Origin: Bacteroides helcogenes
GTDB taxonomy: Bacteria; Bacillota_I; Bacilli_A; RF39; UBA660
DNA: 25,741 nucleotides
Direction: 5' to 3'
NCBI GenBank assembly: GCA_963596555.1
Contig: CAVBMP010000082.1
Location: 1 to 25,741, forward strand
Shown: positions 8,957 to 25,636 of the stretch, piece after piece
Layout of the letters: each line of letters starts with the position of its first letter
How positions within the stretch are numbered: the stretch's first letter is position 1
Position numbers and translations under genes: made by a program
Notes under the pieces: generated by a model
What the model was told of the DNA's origin: nothing
Databases searched by the model: none
Seen by the model: only the letters and a program-made list of their open reading frames with translations

Positions 8957-9724
8957 CTAACCTATTATAAATTTATCAATTAATGGAGTTATTACGTTAG
9001 AAAAATATATTGTTATTAATGCTCCAATAAGCAAAAATGGACCAAATGGTATAATACCTTCTTTATTCTTTTTTATTGATATTAATGAAAATATAAGTCC
9101 TACAAACGAACCAATAAATAAAGTTACAAAACTATTAACTAGTCCAAGTCCTAAAGCAATTACTCCCATTAATTTAATATCACCATCGCCTAAAGATTCC
9201 TTTTTAAATGTTATATTGCCACATATTTTAATAAAATACATTACAATAAATATTATTACTGCAGCAATTATGTTATAAAATACATCATGTATATCTAAAA
9301 AATAATAATTAACTGCTAAAAGTGCTAAACTGCCTATAATAAGTACCCTATCAGATATGTAATAGTACATAAAGTCACTAACTATTGTAACTAAAAGCAT
9401 ACATGTAATTATAGTTGATATAAAGAAATTAATAGTAAAGCCAAATAATAAGTAATTGCATAAGAAAAGTAATGCACCAGTTATTTCTACAAATGGATAA
9501 ATAAAGTTTATTGGTTTACCACAATATGCACATTTACCTTTTAAAAAAATATATGATAGTATTGGTATGTTCATATACCATTTTAATGATTTACCACAAT
9601 CAGCACAGAAACTACTTGGATAGGTAGTTTTTATTTTATTTGGAATTCTATATCCCATGCATCCTAAAAAGCTTCCCATAATCGCACCAAGAACCGTTAA
9701 AAATATTATGATCATTATTTGCAT
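8957..9724 (-). CDS. pilD: Prepilin peptidase (A24 family, PilD/ComC)
   Basis: GSFL...YRIP, S.CADC and GKCAYC Cys pairs, NIPILSY, SDF (first Asp), LGDGDIKL (second Asp), IPFGPFL; multiple TM helices. Confidence 0.95.
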   Translation of the reverse strand: MQIMIIIFLTVLGAIMGSFLGCMGYRIPNKIKTTYPSSFCADCGKSLKWYMNIPILSYIFLKGKCAYCGKPINFIYPFVEITGALLFLCNYLLFGFTINFFISTIITCMLLVTIVSDFMYYYISDRVLIIGSLALLAVNYYFLDIHDVFYNIIAAVIIFIVMYFIKICGNITFKKESLGDGDIKLMGVIALGLGLVNSFVTLFIGSFVGLIFSLISIKKNKEGIIPFGPFLLIGALITIYFSNVITPLIDKFIIG

Positions 9725-9739
9725 ATTTCCCCCTATATT

Positions 9740-11266
9740 TTATCCTGCCGCAACTGTTTGATACATACCAAACATTGGAACAAGAACTGAAATAACTATA
9801 AATCCTACAGCTACTGCTAAGAATAAAATCATTGCTGGTTCAATAAATGTTTTGATTTGACCAACTAAATTCTTTTCTTCTTTTAAGTAGTACTCTCCTA
9901 CCTTTTCAAGCATATTACCAAGTTCGCCAGTATTTTCACCTGTAAGAATCATATAAAATGCAAGATCAGGAACTGCCCAGTGATCCTTAAATGTTTCACT
10001 CATCTTATCACCTTTAATAAGATTATCTATTGTTCTATTCATTATATCTTTATATATTTCATTAGAAGTTATCTTACTTAGTATTTCCATACAATCAGTA
10101 AGCATTACACTATTTTTAGTTAGTGTTGCGAATGTACTTGCAAACATACTCATTTCTTTTGCAATTACAAGTTTACCAATAACAGGCAATCTCATACTAA
10201 GTTTTTGCATTAAAACTTTAAACGATTTAATCTTTTTAAATGCAAATATAAATAGTACAACAGCACCTACAATAACACCTATAATCATCATATAATTGTT
10301 AGTTATAAATGCTGATAAATTAAGAGCAAATTGCGTAATAGCAGGTATCTCAGCACCCATAGATACGAATACATCTTTAAATTTAGGAATGATATAAACA
10401 AGCATAAATGTAATAACTCCAATAGCAAAAATAAGAACTATACTTGGATATGTAATTGCACTAATAACTGCTTTTTTGGTATCTTCTATATCTTGATAAT
10501 AATCAGCCATTTCATCTAATGTATCTTCTATTTTACCAATCATTTCTGCTGATTTAATCATATTAACTAATAATTGCGGGAAAGCAGCACCTTGTTTAGC
10601 AAGAGCATCAGAAAATGTTTCACCCATTGTAAGTTCATATATTAGTGAATCATATATAGGTTTATACTTCTTTCTTTTATCTTGTTGTGCTAATATCTTA
10701 ACTGCATCAGCAAGAGGTATGCCTGCCTTAATATAAGTAGATAATTGTGTCAACCAGAATATTAAATCTTTGGTTTTCATCTTAACAGCACCAACTGGAG
10801 ACTCTTTTCTAAAGAAGTTAATCATTGAGTTAGTTTCAATATTATATACAGTCATTCCCTGATCGACTAAGTATGAATAAACATCATATTTAGAATGAGC
10901 AGAAAAATAGTCTTTAATGATAACTCCTTCTTTATTTCTTGCTAGATATCTATATGTTTGTTTCTTATCACTTTTAACTGCATCAGGCCCATCTGGATCA
11001 ATCTTTATTTCAACTAACTTACTTTCATCTATTTTACTTTTTTTAGTTTTTTTACTCTTTTTATCATCAGTTTTAACCTTTTGTGTATTAGTAGTATTCA
11101 CACTTTGTGGTTGAGCAGCAGGAGTTTGTGGTACTTGATTATTAACTGTTTGATTTGATACTGCCGCACTACTTGATGGTGTATTTGTAGTTACATTAGT
11201 AGCCGCATTAGCATTAGCATTAACATTTGTACTACCAGTAGTATTAATATTTGGATTTTCTGCCAT
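9740..11266 (-). CDS. pilC: Type IV pilus platform protein PilC (T2SSF family) with a long low-complexity N-terminal extension
   Basis: YRYLARN..G, QLSTYIKAGIPL.DA, G..FSDAL, FPQLLVNMI.SAE..G, AITYP, IIPKF, GENTGEL..MLEKV, IEPAM, LVPMF. SD GAGGGTG. Confidence 0.93.
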   Translation of the reverse strand: MAENPNINTTGSTNVNANANAATNVTTNTPSSSAAVSNQTVNNQVPQTPAAQPQSVNTTNTQKVKTDDKKSKKTKKSKIDESKLVEIKIDPDGPDAVKSDKKQTYRYLARNKEGVIIKDYFSAHSKYDVYSYLVDQGMTVYNIETNSMINFFRKESPVGAVKMKTKDLIFWLTQLSTYIKAGIPLADAVKILAQQDKRKKYKPIYDSLIYELTMGETFSDALAKQGAAFPQLLVNMIKSAEMIGKIEDTLDEMADYYQDIEDTKKAVISAITYPSIVLIFAIGVITFMLVYIIPKFKDVFVSMGAEIPAITQFALNLSAFITNNYMMIIGVIVGAVVLFIFAFKKIKSFKVLMQKLSMRLPVIGKLVIAKEMSMFASTFATLTKNSVMLTDCMEILSKITSNEIYKDIMNRTIDNLIKGDKMSETFKDHWAVPDLAFYMILTGENTGELGNMLEKVGEYYLKEEKNLVGQIKTFIEPAMILFLAVAVGFIVISVLVPMFGMYQTVAAG

Positions 11267-11631: not shown

Positions 11632-13416
11632 TTATTCTTTAGAATCAGTACTTAATATTGTTAAAAATGCTTCTTGAGGTATAGAAACAGAACCAACTTG
11701 TTTCATTCTCTTTTTACCTTCTTTTTGCTTCTCTAATAATTTTCTTTTTCTTGAAACATCTCCACCATAACATTTAGCAAGTACATTTTTTTTCATAGCA
11801 GATATATCTTCTCTTGCGATTACTTTAGCACCTATACATGCTTGAATAGGTACTTGAAACATTTGTCTAGGTATTATTTTCTTTAGGTTTTCACATATAA
11901 CCTTTCCTCTTTTATACGCAAAATCTTTATGTACAATTACACTTAAAGCATCAACTATCTCACCATTTAATAATATATCCATTTTAACAAGTTTACTTTC
12001 TCTATTACCTATAAAATCATAATCAAATGATGCATACCCTTTAGTATAACTTTTTAATTTATCAAAGAAGTCATAAACTATTTCACTTAATGGAAGTTCA
12101 TACATAACATTAACTCTAGTTTCATCCATATATGAAATATTTTTATAAACTCCTCTTTTATCTTGACATAATTCCATTATAGAACCAACATATTCAGATG
12201 GAACATATATATTTGCTTTAACAAAAGGTTCTAATACTTTACTTATTTTACCTGGATCTGGCATCTTTGATGGTGAATCTACCATAATAGTAGAACCATC
12301 ACTAAGTATTACTTCATAAATAACAGATGGACTTGTTGCGATAATATCTATATTAAATTCACGTTCTATTCTCTCTTGTATTATTTCCATATGTAATAGT
12401 CCTAAAAAACCACATCTAAATCCAAAACCTAATGCTATTGAAGTTTCTGGTTCGAATGTTAAGGCTGCATCGCTAAGTTTAAGTTTTAATAATGCTTCTT
12501 TAAGAGCATTGTATTTAGTACTATCAATTGGATAAATACCTGAGAATACCATAGGTTTCATAGGTTTATAACCTGGTAGAGGTTCTACTATTTTATTAGC
12601 AAGACAAATAGTGTCGCCAACTTCAACTTCCTCAATACTTTTAATTGATGCTGATATAAATCCCACTTCTCCAGCTGACAGTTTATCTTTTTTTACTTCG
12701 TGTGGCGTATGTTTACCAAGTTCTAAAACTTCATAATCTGCTTCACTATTTATAAAATGAATTTTATCTCCCACTTTTAATAAACCATCAAATACTCTTA
12801 CAAGTATTACTACACCTTTATATGGATCAAAATAACTATCAAATATTAGTGCTCTTAAGTTATCACTTTCACTCTTAGGTGAAGGTATTCTTTCAACTAC
12901 AGCATCAAGTAATTCTACAACGCCTTCACCTGTTTTACCAGAACATAATATTATTTCATCTCTTTCAAATCCAATGGTATCTACAAGTTCATCTTTAACC
13001 TTTTCAGGATCAGCATTAGGTAAATCTATTTTATTAATAACTGGTATTATTTTAAGATTAGCATCAAGTGCTAAATATAGATTAGCAAGAGTTTGTGCCT
13101 CTATTCCCTGAGTAGCATCAACTACAAGTATTGCCCCTTCACATGCAGCAAGACTACGACTTACTTCATAACTAAAGTCTACATGCCCAGGAGTATCTAT
13201 TAAATGCAAAATATGATTTTTATATTTAAGTTCAACTGCATTTAATTTAATAGTTATTCCACGCTCACGCTCAAGATCCATCGAATCAAGTATTTGTGCT
13301 TTCTTTTCCCTTTCTGTTACTGCATGACAAACATCAAGTATTCTATCAGCAAGAGTACTTTTTCCATGATCTATATGCGCTATTATGCAAAAATTTCTAA
13401 TATTTTCCTGTTTCAT
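11632..13416 (-). CDS. lepA: Translation elongation factor 4 (LepA)
   Basis: [77 protein letters not shown]. Start moved to ATG 13416 (MKQENIRNF) because the track's GTG lies in a terminator loop. Confidence 0.98.
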
Positions 13417-13423
13417 AAATAAA

Positions 13424-13432
13424 ATTTTATCA
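13424..13432 (-). promoter_or_regulatory. Extended -10 promoter for lepA, probably leaderless
   Basis: TGA-TAAAAT-N7-ATG with no SD; lies just after the upstream terminator's U-tract. Confidence 0.55.
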
Positions 13433-13433
13433 T

Positions 13434-13471
13434 AAAAAGAAAAATAATTAAAGACCACACTTTAATTATTT
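13434..13471 (-). terminator. Intrinsic terminator of the three-gene EF-Tu-domain operon
   Basis: AAATAATTAAAG-tgtggt-CTTTAATTATTT 12-bp perfect stem followed by TTCTTTTT. Confidence 0.75.
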
Positions 13472-13480
13472 CATATAATT

Positions 13481-14389
13481 TTAATATAACTTAGTAACAG
13501 TTCCTTTACCAATTACTTTGTCACCTTTTTTTACATAGAATTTAGTCCCAATTTCCATAACAGTATCAGCAGACAAACTAATAGTTGCATTAGAACTTTG
13601 TCCGGAGCTTAGAGTCTTTATTCCGTTTGAGAAACTAATACTTCCAGAAATATCAGCAGTCCAGAAATGAAATAATTGTTTATCTGTATCATTTATTGTT
13701 ATCTTTTCACCTACATCACTTTCACTATACACTTCAACAGACACATCACACTTCTTATATGTTTTAGCTGAATTTGTTTTCGCTAATACTTGTCCTTTTA
13801 AAACATCATCTCTATTTATATTTTTAAGTAATAAACCTAACTCTATACCAGGAGTACCAACCTCAATATTCTTTCTAAATGCTTCTATACTATCAACTTC
13901 AACTTCTATAACTTCTCTATTTAGCCCTAAAACTTGAATTTTGTCGCCTGATCTAACAGTTCCTCTTAAAACTTTGCCTGTTACTACAGTACCTCTACCA
14001 GTTATAGTAAAGACATCTTCTAATGTCATCAAAAAAGGACCGTTCTCATCACCGATAACATCATTCGTTATAGTAATTGGATACTCACCATTATTGTCAG
14101 ATGCATTATTATTGTTGTTAGAATTATTATTCGTATTATCAGCTGTATTATTTTTATTGTATATCATTTTACCTAGAAATAATCCTAAAACAGCCCCAAC
14201 TATAAATAGAAGTCCACCTATAATATAAAACTTTGCTTTATTATTTTTATCTACTGGTCCACTCGTGTTTACTTGACTATTCATAGTAGGCTGAGGCCCC
14301 ATAGATTGTTGAAAATTTTGTTGTGAATTTGCCTGATTAATTGGTTGATTAAAACCATTGTTTTGATTAAAATTATTATTTTGATCCAT
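13481..14389 (-). CDS. Membrane-anchored protein consisting of EF-Tu domains II and III (no GTPase domain)
   Basis: Q/N-rich aa 1-50, TM helix aa ~54-73, Asn linker, then from P118 PFLMTLEDVFTITGRGTVVTGKVLRG...IEAFRK...GLLL....KGQVLAK (domain II) and FHFWTADISG...GQ...MEIGTKF.VKKGDKVIGKGTVTKL (domain III). No P-loop, DxxG or NKxD. Confidence 0.9.
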   Translation of the reverse strand: MDQNNNFNQNNGFNQPINQANSQQNFQQSMGPQPTMNSQVNTSGPVDKNNKAKFYIIGGLLFIVGAVLGLFLGKMIYNKNNTADNTNNNSNNNNNASDNNGEYPITITNDVIGDENGPFLMTLEDVFTITGRGTVVTGKVLRGTVRSGDKIQVLGLNREVIEVEVDSIEAFRKNIEVGTPGIELGLLLKNINRDDVLKGQVLAKTNSAKTYKKCDVSVEVYSESDVGEKITINDTDKQLFHFWTADISGSISFSNGIKTLSSGQSSNATISLSADTVMEIGTKFYVKKGDKVIGKGTVTKLY

Positions 14390-15020
14390 TATAATTACCT
14401 TCCTTTATTTCATTGACCCAATCCGGATTATATTTTAAATTTAATTCCTTATTTGTTGTTTTACTGTAATTTTTCTTTACTGATTTTGTCATTTTTATTC
14501 CAGACTTATAACAAGTTGTAACATACATATAGCAACTTGCTAACAGTGCTATAAAAGCACAATCTTTACTAGCAGAATATATATCATAATTGTGTAAATC
14601 ATTATATACAATTCCATCTTTATTGATTTCAGCTATTTGTTCATCTTTATAATATAAAGGACATACACCTCTTTTACCCAATCCAATACAATATAGTTTA
14701 TATTCCTTTTGATTATATAAACATTTAATATACTCATATTTAGAAAAAATGTTTTTTCTATATTCTGTTTGAAAAATCTCACCGACTATACTATTGTTTT
14801 CAATTATGTTATATGGCCTAAATTTTATATTTGAACCGGTCAACATTTCATTCACGCAATTTAATGAAAATGTTTTACCATAAAACGTTCCACTAATATT
14901 TGCTTCCATCGAGGCTAATTTGCCTTCGAAAGAAATTTTTCCAACCTGTTCATTGTTATTAAATATTTCAAAATCACCACTGAATAAATCTTTAACTTTT
15001 TGTTCTAATGATAGTTGCAT
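14376..15020 (-). CDS. Hypothetical protein, LURP1/scramblase/tubby-like beta-rich pattern
   Basis: Repeated (F/Y).I.....VG.I units (FEIFNNNEQVGKI, YNIIENNSIVGEI, LYYKDEQIAEI), then YDI and a hydrophobic C-terminal helix AFIALLASCYMY. Overlaps the next gene by 14 nt. Confidence 0.55.
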   Translation of the reverse strand: MQLSLEQKVKDLFSGDFEIFNNNEQVGKISFEGKLASMEANISGTFYGKTFSLNCVNEMLTGSNIKFRPYNIIENNSIVGEIFQTEYRKNIFSKYEYIKCLYNQKEYKLYCIGLGKRGVCPLYYKDEQIAEINKDGIVYNDLHNYDIYSASKDCAFIALLASCYMYVTTCYKSGIKMTKSVKKNYSKTTNKELNLKYNPDWVNEIKEGNYNGSK

Positions 15021-15024
15021 TCCT

Positions 15025-15672
15025 TCACCTCACTTTACTATTATTTTTCTCTTTTAAATATTTTATACTTTTTATAATAAAAATGATTAGAATAGAACTC
15101 ACAAATAATGTAGCAAATAGTAAAATAGTTATAGAATTGCTAACAAAATCATTTGGGTTATCTTTATTATAATAAATTTTTATTTTATCGCCTTCATTAT
15201 ATTTGCATGTGTCGTATTCAAGCTTATTATTATATTTTTGATTATCCGCATTATAATTAATATAAACTTTACATTTTTCTTCCTTCTTTTTATAAGAATT
15301 TCCATCATCGTCATACTCTGTTTTATAATTTATTGTCTTATCAACTTCATAAACTGTTGCGATTGTTTCAATACCATTTATTCTATATGAAATATTTTTA
15401 ATTAATAAGGCTAAACAAACACCAAAAAAACTACAAATAATTATTAAGCATATAAAATATGTATAATTAATATTATGCTTAATCTTTATTCCTTTTTCTT
15501 GTTTAATAACTTTAATGGAATTTAATGTAAACAATAAAGTTAAAGCTCCAAATATTACACTTGCTATAATCCAAACAATATCCTTAGTTGTTACAGCCGC
15601 AAACGTTGAAACAGCAAAAGCTATAAAAAAACCAAGTGTACCTAATATCTGATTCAATATCACTATATTCAT
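15025..15672 (-). CDS. DUF3592-like membrane protein (three N-terminal TMs, soluble domain, C-terminal TM)
   Basis: GIETIATVYEV...VYINY...YNEGDKIKIYYNKDNP between TM helices is the DUF3592 pattern. GGAGG upstream. Confidence 0.7.
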   Translation of the reverse strand: MNIVILNQILGTLGFFIAFAVSTFAAVTTKDIVWIIASVIFGALTLLFTLNSIKVIKQEKGIKIKHNINYTYFICLIIICSFFGVCLALLIKNISYRINGIETIATVYEVDKTINYKTEYDDDGNSYKKKEEKCKVYINYNADNQKYNNKLEYDTCKYNEGDKIKIYYNKDNPNDFVSNSITILLFATLFVSSILIIFIIKSIKYLKEKNNSKVR

Positions 15673-20406: not shown

Positions 20407-20871
20407 TTAATTACAACTTTTATTATTTTCAGTTATTTTGAAGTCACAGCATTCGCAAGATTTACCTTCACTATTTGCTATACATATAGGATTAGAACCA
20501 TTTCTTTTAATAATACAACTATTTAAAAACTCTTTACTATCTTTGGTTGCTATATATAATCTTATAACATAATCACTTGGTATTTCACTATTATCTGTAG
20601 GATTTTTTAAATCACTATCTATATAATTATTTGACTTTAGTGTACTTATAGGTATATTTAAATATTTATTCTCACGAAAAGAATTTAATGCATTAGAATC
20701 AACATCCATATATAACATAGCGGCATCTTGTATATCAACATAAATACTTTTTAACTCTTCGTCTTTGGTAACATTAGTGGTAGTTTCATACATCACAACA
20801 CTACTTACACCTATTATTGCTGATATTGTTATTACTAGTAAAACCTCCATTAAAGTAAAACCATTCTTCAT
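20407..20871 (-). CDS. Type IV pilin-like protein with Cys-rich C-terminus
   Basis: Class III signal MKNG|FTLMEVLLVITISAIIGV (Gly-1, Phe+1, Glu+5); AA.LY and LKSNNYI...KNP pilin-head motifs. Start set at ATG 20871 by SD AGGTG spacing. Confidence 0.9.
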   Translation of the reverse strand: MKNGFTLMEVLLVITISAIIGVSSVVMYETTTNVTKDEELKSIYVDIQDAAMLYMDVDSNALNSFRENKYLNIPISTLKSNNYIDSDLKNPTDNSEIPSDYVIRLYIATKDSKEFLNSCIIKRNGSNPICIANSEGKSCECCDFKITENNKSCN

Positions 20872-20905
20872 ACACTTCACCTATTATAAATTATACAATA
20901 AATAT

Positions 20906-22694: not shown

Positions 22695-23162
22695 ATTGTA
22701 TACTAGTTCAGGAAATATTGTCCCTACAAATAATAATATAACGAGTGTTATAGGATTTATAAGTATCTTTATAATTGTACTAAATAATGAATTGTTATAA
22801 ACAATTTTAGCAAGTAAGTCTTTATCTTCAAGATTTACTGTTTCATTATTTTCATTTATTACTTTATATTTATATAATTCATTTTCAGTGATTTTTGCAA
22901 CTAAATATTTTTCACCTTCTTGATATACAATATAGTCTCCTTCACTATAACTACTTGTCTTTTCAAATATAAGTAATTTTCCTGCTTCTATATCTGGTGC
23001 TAAAGCATTACCTTCAACTATAATATATGAGTATCCATCCATTACAGTTGGTAATACTTCTTTATATATCTTTCTTTTAGTGAAAAGAATAACTACTATT
23101 AGTGCAAAAATAACTAAATATGTAATTACAATTCCTCTTATTATATTTAAAAATATTTTCAT
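22689..23162 (-). CDS. SipW/S26B signal-peptidase-like protein lacking catalytic residues
   Basis: N-terminal TM; P...GYSYIIVEGNALAPDIEAGKLLIFEK aligns with P.IFGY...VLSGSMEP.I..GDLIIVK; GDYIVY; YLVAKI aligns with ITHRI; C-terminal TM with NP. TAATG overlap with the secA stop. Confidence 0.65.
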   Translation of the reverse strand: MKIFLNIIRGIVITYLVIFALIVVILFTKRKIYKEVLPTVMDGYSYIIVEGNALAPDIEAGKLLIFEKTSSYSEGDYIVYQEGEKYLVAKITENELYKYKVINENNETVNLEDKDLLAKIVYNNSLFSTIIKILINPITLVILLFVGTIFPELVYNK

Positions 23163-25609
23163 TATAATTTCACTCCTTTTTCTTCCATCACAGTTAAATC
23201 TGGAAGATATGTTCCGTATGGTATTGTTGGTTTAAGTGCATAAGCAAGTAGTTCGTTTTGAATATATGGAACTGAACTTTGTGCTAAACTATATGCATAT
23301 AATCTATACTCATCAAATATGTTTTTACCAGCATATGCTTTAAGACCAGCACTCGCTCTATTTTGTGTTAAACGATTTAACATATCGATATAGTAGTCAT
23401 CTACCACACTTAATAATTTGCTTCTTACTTTATCATCATAATTATTTATTTGACCTGATGTTTCTAAAGAACTTATTCCCTTTTTCAATAAAGTACTTAA
23501 TTGTTCTTTAGTTTTTTTACTATTACTAAAATCACATGAATCTATCATAGATGCTGGTACAAATTGTCCAATTAACGATACAATCTCATCATGAGTTTTA
23601 GTTGATAAAAATCCAGAATAACTGTCAATTGTACTATCTAATGCTTCACTAATAGTTTTACTCTTTAGTATTTTATCTCTATTTTTATAGAATATATTTT
23701 TTTGTTCAGTTAGTATTTTACCAAACTCTTCTTCAAATTTTCTAGTCGCAGCATCTTTACTTTCTCTTTTTGCCTGACACATTTTAACTTTTTTACAGAT
23801 AGATTCACTTGTAACTCTACCATAAGGATTAGTTCCTTTTAAATAAGTTACTTTTGGATTGAATGCTAACATAGAATCATTTTCAAGTACTATATCATCT
23901 TCAAGAGACACAAAGCATTTACTACTTCCAGGATCACCCTGTCTTGCTGCACGACCTCTTAATTGATTATCAATTCTTTCACTCTTATTATAAGTTGTAC
24001 TAATAACATGAAGTCCACCTACTTCTAAAACTCCATCACCTAGTTTTATATCTGTACCACGACCAGCCATATTTGTTGTAACAGTTACTTTTCCAAGAAG
24101 CCCAGCATTTTTAACAATACCTGCTTCATTTTCATTTTTAACTGCATTTAATAATTGATGTCTAATACCTGCTTCTTTTAGAAGTTTACTAACCATTTCA
24201 CTTTCTTCTATAGAATCAGTACCAATAAGTACAGGTTGTAGTTTTTCATGACAAGATATTACTTCATTTATTATTGCTTTATATTTTGCTTCTTTAGTTA
24301 AATATACTTCATCTTCATAATCTATTCTAATATTAGGTTTTCTACTCGGTACTTCATATGTTTCTAAATAATATAGATCTCTAAATGCTTCAATATTACT
24401 AGTACCTGTCATACCACATATACCAGAAGAATACATTGAGAAAAAGTCTGGGAATGTACATCTAGCAGTTACAATATTACTTGCTTTAATAGCGACATTT
24501 TCTTTTGCCTCGATTGCTTCATGAAGACCATTAGATAGTCTTTTACCTGTCGCAACTCTACCTGTATTTTTATCTATAATACTTATTTCTTTTCCATTTT
24601 CTACAATATAGTCAATATCTTTATGATAAGCATACTGTGCAAGTATAGCATTAATAACCGCAGCTTTTCTTATACCATGTTCATATACATCATCATTATT
24701 ATTGATATCAAAGTCAGGTATATATTTTTCTATATCATTTGACATTCTTTGTGATAACATTACTTCTTTTTCATCAAGAAAAAGTATACTTCCAGTATAA
24801 GTCATCCCTTCAACATTAACTTTCTGAGGAACTACTTTACAATCATATTTCTTAATAAAATCACGTGCCCATTTGCATAAATTCTCATTATCAAGAGGAT
24901 CTAATGAGTCTTTTTTATTACTACTTAATATCATAGCGGTACTTGCTTCATCTAAAAGTATACTATCAACTTCATCTATAATCGCAAAATTAAATGGTCT
25001 TTTAATATACCTATCTTTTTCATTTTTAACTAAGTTATCATTCAAATAATCAAAACCAACAGTTGATGCCTTAGCATAAACTATATCACAAGCATATAAC
25101 TTTTGTTTTTCTTCACGACTTATTTTCCTAGTTCTATTTTCGGGTACAAAACCACATGAAAGACCAAGAAATTCATATACCTTACTGTTTTCTTTGCAAT
25201 CTCTTTCAGTTAAATAATCATTAGATGTCATAACATGAACACCTTTACCACTAATCGCATTCAAATAAGCAACTAATATTTGTACTAAAGTCTTACCTTC
25301 ACCAGTTTTCATTTCACTAATACAATTATCCTGCATCGCTACTGCTGATGAAAGTTGAACTTCATAATGAAACATACCAAGACATCTTCTAGTTGCTTCT
25401 CTACAAACTGCAAATGCTTCAACCATAATATCTTTTTCAGTTTCACCATTTTTAAGTCTTTTTCTAAAAATATCAGTTTGAGATGAAAGTTCACTATCAG
25501 ACATAGATTTGTATTTGTTTTCAAGCGCACAAATCTCTTTAACAGTTTCATTTATTCTCTTTCTGTTTCTTTGTGTATATGTTCCAAATATTTTATCAGA
25601 CATGCTCAT
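23162..25609 (-). CDS. secA: Preprotein translocase SecA, divergent (probable paralog / SecA2-like)
   Basis: EAFAVCREA, EMKTGEGKTL, NDYL.ERD, GFDYL.DN, AIIDEVDSILLDEA, GLHEAIEAKE, GMTGT, QPVLIGT, TNMAGRGTDIKLG, RIDNQLRGRAARQGDPG. No C-terminal SEC-C motif. Start set at ATG 25609 (SD AGGTG). Confidence 0.9.
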   Translation of the reverse strand: MSMSDKIFGTYTQRNRKRINETVKEICALENKYKSMSDSELSSQTDIFRKRLKNGETEKDIMVEAFAVCREATRRCLGMFHYEVQLSSAVAMQDNCISEMKTGEGKTLVQILVAYLNAISGKGVHVMTSNDYLTERDCKENSKVYEFLGLSCGFVPENRTRKISREEKQKLYACDIVYAKASTVGFDYLNDNLVKNEKDRYIKRPFNFAIIDEVDSILLDEASTAMILSSNKKDSLDPLDNENLCKWARDFIKKYDCKVVPQKVNVEGMTYTGSILFLDEKEVMLSQRMSNDIEKYIPDFDINNNDDVYEHGIRKAAVINAILAQYAYHKDIDYIVENGKEISIIDKNTGRVATGKRLSNGLHEAIEAKENVAIKASNIVTARCTFPDFFSMYSSGICGMTGTSNIEAFRDLYYLETYEVPSRKPNIRIDYEDEVYLTKEAKYKAIINEVISCHEKLQPVLIGTDSIEESEMVSKLLKEAGIRHQLLNAVKNENEAGIVKNAGLLGKVTVTTNMAGRGTDIKLGDGVLEVGGLHVISTTYNKSERIDNQLRGRAARQGDPGSSKCFVSLEDDIVLENDSMLAFNPKVTYLKGTNPYGRVTSESICKKVKMCQAKRESKDAATRKFEEEFGKILTEQKNIFYKNRDKILKSKTISEALDSTIDSYSGFLSTKTHDEIVSLIGQFVPASMIDSCDFSNSKKTKEQLSTLLKKGISSLETSGQINNYDDKVRSKLLSVVDDYYIDMLNRLTQNRASAGLKAYAGKNIFDEYRLYAYSLAQSSVPYIQNELLAYALKPTIPYGTYLPDLTVMEEKGVKL

Positions 25610-25636
25610 ATTAAACACCTATTTTCCATTAATATA

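Follow-up and report, generated by a model that had tools for sequence, protein, structure and literature searches.

Membrane-anchored derivatives of EF-Tu in gut Bacilli: an apparently undescribed protein family with a possible binding role at the cell surface

Introduction

EF-Tu at the bacterial surface has been reported for two decades. A selected function there is hard to tell from leakage, because tuf is essential and its product bears no export signal. Moonlighting surface EF-Tu is described for M. pneumoniae, M. hyopneumoniae and S. aureus (PMC5593925) and for L. johnsonii and others (PMC6822514); in these cases the product of tuf is what reaches the surface, having no signal motif and leaving the cell non-classically. 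The protein studied here is encoded in a stretch of 25,741 nucleotides, below called the window. It resembles the moonlighting proteins in belonging to the low-GC Firmicutes and in the exposure of domains II and III at the surface, which is predicted in our case and in theirs includes processed fragments. It differs in being the product of a separate gene with its own signal-anchor, in having no translation function and in having diverging paralogues.

Several other described systems share single features with the window protein. Bacterial EF-Tu (TIGR00485, PRK00049; PDB 1EFC, 1D8T) has the same domain II-III sequence and fold and the same natural C-terminus. Unlike it, the window protein has no G domain, carries a membrane anchor and a stalk, is changed at T-stem and G-domain-facing residues, evolves several times faster, and scores 141-150 bits against bacterial EF-Tu families whose cut-offs are 449-522 (141 vs 522 for TIGR00485). 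A domain-II-like barrel without a GTPase domain is described in Thermococcales (Pbp11, Q9UZY3; NF041207; PMC9540759), but it is an archaeal, soluble, cytoplasmic 11 kDa partner of the proteasome. NF041207 gave no match for the window protein, and the single-barrel relative P0122 scored 31 against its cut-off of 100. TcaA-like proteins with a zinc-ribbon or Q/N tail and a helix (NF053815; PF13240) have the same anchor cassette, and the relative P0019 matches TcaA weakly over its N-terminal 74 residues (E 4.5e-4). The ectodomain of our family is by contrast a captured translation factor, with no TcaA C-terminal region. Finally, EF-Tu is a cofactor of toxins (CdiA-CT NC101, PDB 5I4Q, PMC5737660; Tse6, PDB 4ZV4), which shows isolated domains II-III to fold and to bind a toxin; unlike the present proteins, these systems use the victim's cytoplasmic EF-Tu.

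The initial annotation of the window knew of no description of such an architecture, and we found none. No NCBIfam family covers the anchored II-III layout, the ESM Atlas offers automatically named II-III clusters (score 0.89, a lead), the words 'membrane' and 'truncated' did not occur in a word search of the translational GTPase survey PMC4342817, and no anchored EF-Tu decoy was found in the literature. Our literature search lay largely outside subscription journals, so that absence from print is unproven. The proteins thus apparently form an undescribed family. What is new is the family and its architecture; the function may turn out to be of a known kind, such as that of an adhesin.

The anchored gene and its product

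The window belongs to genome G000, a fragmented bin of 232 contigs (1.23 Mb, 26% GC, 85% complete), which retains an ordinary tuf on contig C199, after rpsL-rpsG-fusA. An intact open reading frame with one transmembrane helix, EF-Tu domains II and III and no G domain had been read from the sequence, and this was borne out by Pfam, AlphaFold2 and Foldseek (Table 1). Pfam placed GTP_EFTU_D2 at residues 133-203 (E 4.9e-15) and D3 at 208-301 (E 8.1e-7), and the same search found no GTP_EFTU (PF00009), that is, no G domain. There is one hydrophobic segment (residues 54-72, Kyte-Doolittle 2.54). AlphaFold2, supplied with a family alignment of 41 sequences, predicted a helix at 52-77, disorder at 1-51 and 78-104, and barrels with a pLDDT of 92-98; Foldseek matched this model to EF-Tu domains II-III with an rmsd of 1.2-1.9 A across about 190 columns. 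An internal helix near the N-terminus, preceded by basic residues, corresponds to a type II (N-in, C-out) single-pass layout, and the positive-inside rule places the tail on the cytoplasmic side.

Alignment to E. coli EF-Tu confirmed the residues listed earlier as retained (E215, D216, F218, R223, T228, E259, F261 and R262) and as changed (G257S, N273E, GGRHTPF replaced), and most aminoacyl-end pocket residues of domain II are present. The loss of GGRHTPF, although true of the window protein, is peculiar to its subfamily, most relatives retaining the motif. The Shine-Dalgarno-like site sits within the 3' end of the upstream reading frame, an arrangement of translational coupling, and a promoter scan gave 16 sites where 21 were expected, the sole strong one at 15785-15756. 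Five of the 975 reading frames in G000 fit the anchor cassette, and by tblastn the window gene is the only EF-Tu-like one among them.

Table 1. Positions of the anchored gene, its parts, its neighbours and related forms (positions without a locus name refer to the window).
Feature	Position	Strand	Basis or remark
Gene, membrane-anchored EF-Tu domain II-III protein, 302 aa	13481..14389	-	ORF, Pfam, AlphaFold2, Foldseek
Shine-Dalgarno-like AAGGAAGG	14398..14405	-	seen in sequence; 8 nt 5' of ATG
Q/N-rich disordered N-terminal tail, aa 1-53, basic KNNKAK at its end	14231..14389	-	predicted cytoplasmic
Single transmembrane helix, aa 54-72, type II signal-anchor	14174..14230	-	hydropathy, AlphaFold2
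Asn-rich, acidic, disordered stalk, aa 73-113, where the G domain would stand	14051..14173	-	sequence, AlphaFold2
EF-Tu domain II barrel, aa 114-207	13769..14050	-	Pfam, alignment, dN/dS 0.04-0.05
EF-Tu domain III barrel, aa 208-302	13484..13768	-	T-stem motifs lost; dN/dS 0.11-0.14
lepA (EF4)	11632..13458	-	directly downstream of the anchored gene
Upstream gene pair on the same strand: tubby-C/LOR-like lead of 214 aa; membrane protein with DUF3592	14376..15672	-	Pfam, locus comparison
Tandem anchored G+III and II+III genes	L054:4392-6570; L057:5496-7260; L059:5496-7580		EF-Tu divided between two membrane proteins
Signal-peptide proteins with L7/L12 and EF-Tu II-III (P0246, P0259, P0384)			

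The gene is real and under purifying selection

The fragmented state of G000, three broken relatives (L046, L122 and L124) and the random tuf fusions that occur in databases (7 of 71 helix-bearing representatives) would suit an assembly chimera or a neutrally decaying duplicate, two of the dangers that the initial annotation had named. Both are refuted and keep a negligible probability. Of the 120 homologue clusters listed, the best 64 share one layout, a membrane helix and domains II-III with the G domain missing; the remaining 56 are ordinary EF-Tu or fragments. Single contigs from runs X4 and X5, which belong to two independent studies, span 13374-14405 across the junction, and the gene is also present in runs X1 and X2, split over two pieces. 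The dN/dS of the barrels, measured against the orthologues L048 and L061, which occupy the same place upstream of lepA, was 0.08 (bootstrap 0.03-0.17) and 0.07 (bootstrap 0.02-0.15), respectively, far below 1; lepA gave 0.03-0.04 and a pilus-assembly gene 0.10-0.14. Across the family, 16 of 17 pairs of anchored genes gave 0.06-0.39, the 17th pair being near-identical (4 changes) and uninformative. The barrels are moreover only 37% identical to the host tuf. These results confirm that the gene is real and selected, not decaying.

Orientation in the membrane

Among 61 diverse members, the net charge before the helix exceeds that after it in 50, equals it in 6 and is lower in 5, and a zinc ribbon stands at the N-terminal start in 24. 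Three members carry lipoprotein-type signal peptides as judged by eye; a strict lipobox pattern matched none of the 61 and missed these cases. Lgt and LspA are encoded in G000. Cys-containing stalks occur in the family, and at L046, L050, L054 and L066 neighbouring genes carry VWA/TSP3 ectodomains on the same zinc-ribbon-helix cassette. Because of the charge bias, the zinc-ribbon tails, the lipoprotein-type variants and the cassette shared with VWA/TSP3 proteins, the barrels very probably face outwards, as had been proposed from the basic residues before the window helix.

If the barrels faced the cytoplasm instead, they might tether tRNA, ribosomes or MreB to the membrane. Lysines do flank both sides of the window helix (three before, two after), an EF-Tu-MreB interaction is mentioned in PMC6822514, and lepA directly follows the anchored gene in the window's species group, both close orthologue loci (L048 and L061) included. 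The lepA linkage is however absent outside close relatives, and charge bias, zinc-ribbon tails, lipoprotein-type variants, Cys-containing stalks and the VWA/TSP3 cassette all oppose an inward orientation, which we regard as highly improbable. We treat the adjacency of lepA as context, with a functional link that is putative at most.

Layouts and distribution of the family

The layout of a helix followed by domains II and III, though real, is one of several in its family, whose exported forms include the G domain and full-length EF-Tu as well, a point that had gone unnoticed. In a profile search of 1.84 billion representatives, 71 of the best 150 matches had a membrane helix, and after 7 chance fusions to near-native tuf were set aside 64 were retained. 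Fifty of these are II-III, 6 are full-length G-II-III, 3 have II-III twice, 2 are II-III-III, 2 are II-III-II and 1 is III-II-III; the 64 include four signal-peptide proteins that are of a different type. A search with the gene adjoining an orthologue added six clusters of anchored G+III and one full-length form. Domain II alone is anchored in genome G106, directly behind tuf, and domain III alone in G320; domain III is present in every layout except TM-II. The G106 protein (L036:2265-2669), 135 residues of membrane helix and domain II, is perhaps a separate local capture. A lipoprotein in G303 (L135:790-1770) has a weak Band-7/SPFH match followed by a weak match to EF-Tu domain III.

In three assemblies (L054=L056, L057 and L059) an anchored G+III gene is directly followed by an anchored II+III gene. 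The tandem genes at L054 share 88% DNA identity across their first 327 bases and therefore point to a duplication with subsequent reciprocal domain loss. Three divergent II+III copies stand in tandem in genome G186. The G186 copies, the divergence of subfamilies and the broken copies suggest birth-and-death evolution as in surface-protein families. We considered whether tandem G+III and II+III products might reassemble into a split EF-Tu, and we set this low. Residues facing the missing domain are lost in each form: R204, P300 and H301 are changed in 3 of 3 paired II+III copies and R230/E232 likewise in 3 of 3 (positions that we take to face the G domain, a set chosen after the data had been seen), and the FYFRTTD hairpin is lost from domain III of all eight G+III proteins.

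A motif scan of species genomes gave 18 loci from 16 assemblies, the three with tandem G+III and II+III genes among them. The distribution is patchy: at least 12 of 50 genomes of the window's genus, G000 included, carry an anchored form, and at least 13 of 250 other genomes of the order have a second domain III match, these counts being lower bounds. Eight of the 13 proved on inspection to be intact anchored genes (one a weak lipoprotein case); among the others, one was assigned by matching coordinates, two are broken, one is a second tuf and one is a tuf split at a contig end. Ordinary tuf was seen in 9 of the 10 carrier genomes searched. No mobile carrier appeared in a motif scan of viral contigs, and tblastn against phages and plasmids gave no record covering 80% of the query. 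In G152 (contig C15) two identical anchored II-III copies (L045 and L058) lie 6.6 kb apart within a block that is itself duplicated and also holds genes for TnpV, a resolvase and YhcG, either a real duplication or an assembly repeat. A second, divergent full-length tuf in G121 (L037:2148-3344, contig C46), 74% identical to the host type and present beside the ordinary tuf, may reflect transfer or contamination.

Probable origin from tuf

In a tree of domains II-III, the 76 anchored sequences form one clade (SH-aLRT 91) that is sister to the host-family tuf genes (81); this is a quick tree without bootstrap, whose root and branching order are provisional. A smaller quick tree gave the anchored clade (20 rows) a support of 80. 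The comparison with host tuf, proposed in the initial annotation, thus gives a single anchored clade. Five full-length anchored proteins branch first in it, and two others are nested among the II+III forms. Descent of the anchored forms from tuf by way of anchored full-length forms has good support, and the simplest path would be a tuf duplication, fusion to an anchor cassette and repeated loss of domains. Transfer is suggested by a carrier titled Clostridia, whose tuf is only 76% like that of the host. General gene conversion from tuf was rejected, since the anchored genes of 12 genomes did not show consistently higher codon identity to the resident tuf than to others. The full-length anchored form of G191 (L105:3707-5254, compared with L116) has patches in domains II-III that are near-identical to tuf at synonymous sites, and its G domain is 34% identical to tuf; here conversion of domains II-III from tuf is probable.

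Domains II-III are also found in four database proteins whose signal peptides are cleavable or of lipoprotein type. Three of them have in addition several L7/L12 C-terminal domains (Table 1), one of these three with a PASTA domain. Their sequences look unrelated to gut Bacilli and branch apart in both trees. An independent origin of the L7/L12-fused forms was put to an AU test, which did not reject a single clade (p=0.47). No extra L7/L12 copies were found in the window's genus, exactly one being present in 42 of 50 genomes. The proteins P0420-P0427 have two to seven L7/L12 C-terminal domains and no signal peptide, and two of them come from Myxococcales bins.

What the exported domains keep and lose

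None of 16 anchored G domains has all of G1-G4 intact. The P-loop is kept in the G+III group, NKxD is intact in two and His66 in one, so that these domains are probably pseudo-GTPases. The model of a G+III protein fits GDP-form EF-Tu (TM 0.67-0.68) better than the GTP forms (0.47), which makes G+III and II+III each a natural rigid sub-assembly. Site rates were computed over 74 sequences, and residue sets were compared with other tuf-invariant sites. Five sets were tried. The polar residues of the aminoacyl-end pocket were the slowest functional set, below the rate of the remaining polar tuf-invariant sites (P=0.02). By the residue lists that we take to represent this pocket and the tRNA T-stem contacts, the window protein keeps 8 of 10 pocket and 1 of 9 T-stem residues, and its aminoacyl-tRNA interface is not intact. 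Both sets are almost whole in 21 of the 74 members, the pocket is kept without the T-stem set in 13, the window protein among them, and the pocket is lost in 11. The members keep differing surfaces, and no single EF-Tu ligand explains them all.

One explanation is a surface decoy, in which the barrels would mimic EF-Tu and intercept EF-Tu-binding toxins, phage proteins, peptides or antibodies, the various layouts baiting different binders. Every EF-Tu surface is indeed exported in one form or another while catalysis is lost, evolution is fast and patchy, and the tuf-like patches of the G191 form look as if refreshed to stay tuf-like. CdiA-CT NC101 binds domain 2 only, via E259, F261, R262 and D266, in the contact description of PMC5737660, and the window protein keeps three of these four residues. 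Across the family, however, these four contacts were not slower than background (P=0.89), and neither were the 12 GE2270A contacts given in PMC8183687 (P=0.98), of which the window protein keeps 8 and has changed 4. The initial annotation had named G257S as a GE2270A-resistance change and offered a decoy for EF-Tu-targeting molecules as one reading. The argument for a GE2270A decoy is not supported, because a resistance-type change such as G257S would weaken a decoy, not create one; moreover, G257 is kept in 49% and N273 in 68% of 69 family sequences. Together with the decay of the GTPase and the differing surfaces, the failure to keep the GE2270A contacts preferentially makes a thiopeptide decoy unlikely. 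A375, which we take to have a role in kirromycin binding, is substituted throughout the anchored family. With no more than 30-45% identity to the host tuf, many members would be poor mimics. A few copies lie near CBASS, YafQ or MazF genes, but most loci adjoin housekeeping or surface genes, not defence islands. On balance we find a decoy rather unlikely.

The slow pocket residues would suit a catcher or sensor of RNA or translation components (tRNA 3' ends, EF-Ts, ribosomes) released from lysed cells, which might feed a salvage-dependent cell or signal the death of a neighbour via the cytoplasmic tail. The G+III proteins, whose best model fit is to GDP-form EF-Tu, mostly keep the EMVMPG tip of domain III, presumably the EF-Ts contact. 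Exported domains II-III fused to L7/L12 C-terminal domains exist, and Pbp11, a stand-alone domain-II-like barrel, is reported to bind tRNA (PMC9540759). This binding requires the basic N-terminal tail of Pbp11. Relative to tuf, the barrels of the present family are acidic (median net charge -5 vs -1; window protein +1). The loss of eight T-stem contacts and N273E in the window protein also count against a catcher, as does the clade largely without the domain II pocket, which is still under purifying selection (dN/dS 0.06-0.31, 15 pairs). There is free variation among the tails, which lipoprotein forms lack, and no transporter or nuclease is conserved beside the anchored genes at the loci examined. 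We judge this explanation improbable.

It is also conceivable that the fold alone matters, the barrels being a generic stalk tip or a scaffold in envelope complexes and their EF-Tu-like residues fading relics. Members down to about 30% identity are still intact, the invariant columns of the family alignment are glycines and core residues, and the barrels are duplicated and shuffled like modules across the family. Yet the surface polar residues E215, D216, E315 and E378 are kept in 78-89% of the 74 members, and the dN/dS of window domain II (0.04-0.05) is close to that of lepA. We therefore consider a purely structural role quite improbable.

A proposed role at the cell surface

A dead enzyme fold on a stalk that undergoes shuffling, duplication and loss and diverges between subfamilies is in keeping with a family of surface binders. 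One idea of the initial annotation, a dedicated surface adhesin or receptor, is the leading proposal on sequence grounds, and we give it a probability of roughly 0.45: the anchored forms may be dedicated, diversifying surface binding proteins that arose from the moonlighting adhesion of EF-Tu. The path would begin with a tuf duplicate that was joined, in a single event within or close to this group of gut Bacilli with small genomes, to a type II anchor cassette, with a Q/N-rich or zinc-ribbon tail inside, one helix and a flexible stalk outside. Free of translation duty, the exported copy would have lost GTPase function and shrunk to units that stand by themselves, namely G+III, II+III and barrels in single or repeated form; the window protein is of the II+III kind. 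Its two beta-barrels, held some 40 residues off the membrane, would bind macromolecules around the cell; candidate ligands are host mucin, matrix glycoproteins and other surfaces, and the task would be the one that moonlighting EF-Tu performs. Different ligands would have come to be bound by the various subfamilies and tandem copies.

Fibronectin-binding regions of M. pneumoniae EF-Tu are assigned to the domain I/II boundary and to most of domain III (PMC5593925), and L. johnsonii EF-Tu is reported to bind mucin and intestinal cells (PMC6822514). Some evidence counts against an adhesin. Moonlighting binding is ascribed to basic motifs in PMC5593925, whereas the family barrels are acidic. The slow polar residues of the pocket would fit an RNA- or toxin-type ligand as well, and 21 of 74 members keep both tRNA-binding sets nearly complete despite there being no general conversion from tuf. 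Exported II-III with L7/L12 also occurs outside apparent gut Bacilli, where host adhesion is less obvious.

A broader alternative, which we find doubtful, is that a modular, catalytically dead EF-Tu is displayed as a receptor or bait for tRNA ends, EF-Ts, ribosomes, EF-Tu-dependent toxins or phage proteins. The G+III, II+III and single-barrel forms would then each present one EF-Tu binding face, occasional gene conversion from tuf would keep some copies current, and export of II-III joined to L7/L12 domains would be how other bacteria came to a comparable design. If true, this would define a class of extracellular translation-factor mimics.

The two jobs of EF-Tu are apparently split here, one of them falling to a non-essential, anchored, GTPase-dead paralogue under purifying selection. 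The usefulness of EF-Tu folds at the envelope thereby gains genetic evidence, and separate genes seem to have taken over what the household EF-Tu does on the side at the cell surface. The family amounts to a natural domain-deletion series (full, G+III, II+III, II, III), in which every anchored form can be produced, removed or displayed with translation left intact and can reveal which EF-Tu face matters. Few cases are documented in which an envelope protein has come from a core translation factor, and this one belongs to an uncultured gut lineage that is abundant.

Genomic surroundings

Gene neighbourhoods of the anchored EF-Tu genes are not conserved past genus level. The two genes upstream of the window gene are not part of the element, because close relatives have a pilin-like DUF6273 gene in their place, which marks a variable slot. 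At L046, L050, L054 and L066 a recurring cluster precedes the anchored gene, in the order lipoprotein, 126-aa unknown, ~940-aa zinc-ribbon-helix-TSP3-VWA protein, 196-aa membrane protein and anchored EF-Tu; in L039 and L040 its place is taken by an SPFH and zinc-ribbon cluster. Elsewhere in the window, a prepilin peptidase, PilC/T2SSF and a pilin-like gene (8957-11266 and 20407-20880) point to type IV pilus or competence machinery, and a divergent SecA-like gene (23162-25618, 818 aa), possibly a second SecA, stands beside spoIVA and a signal-peptidase-like gene.
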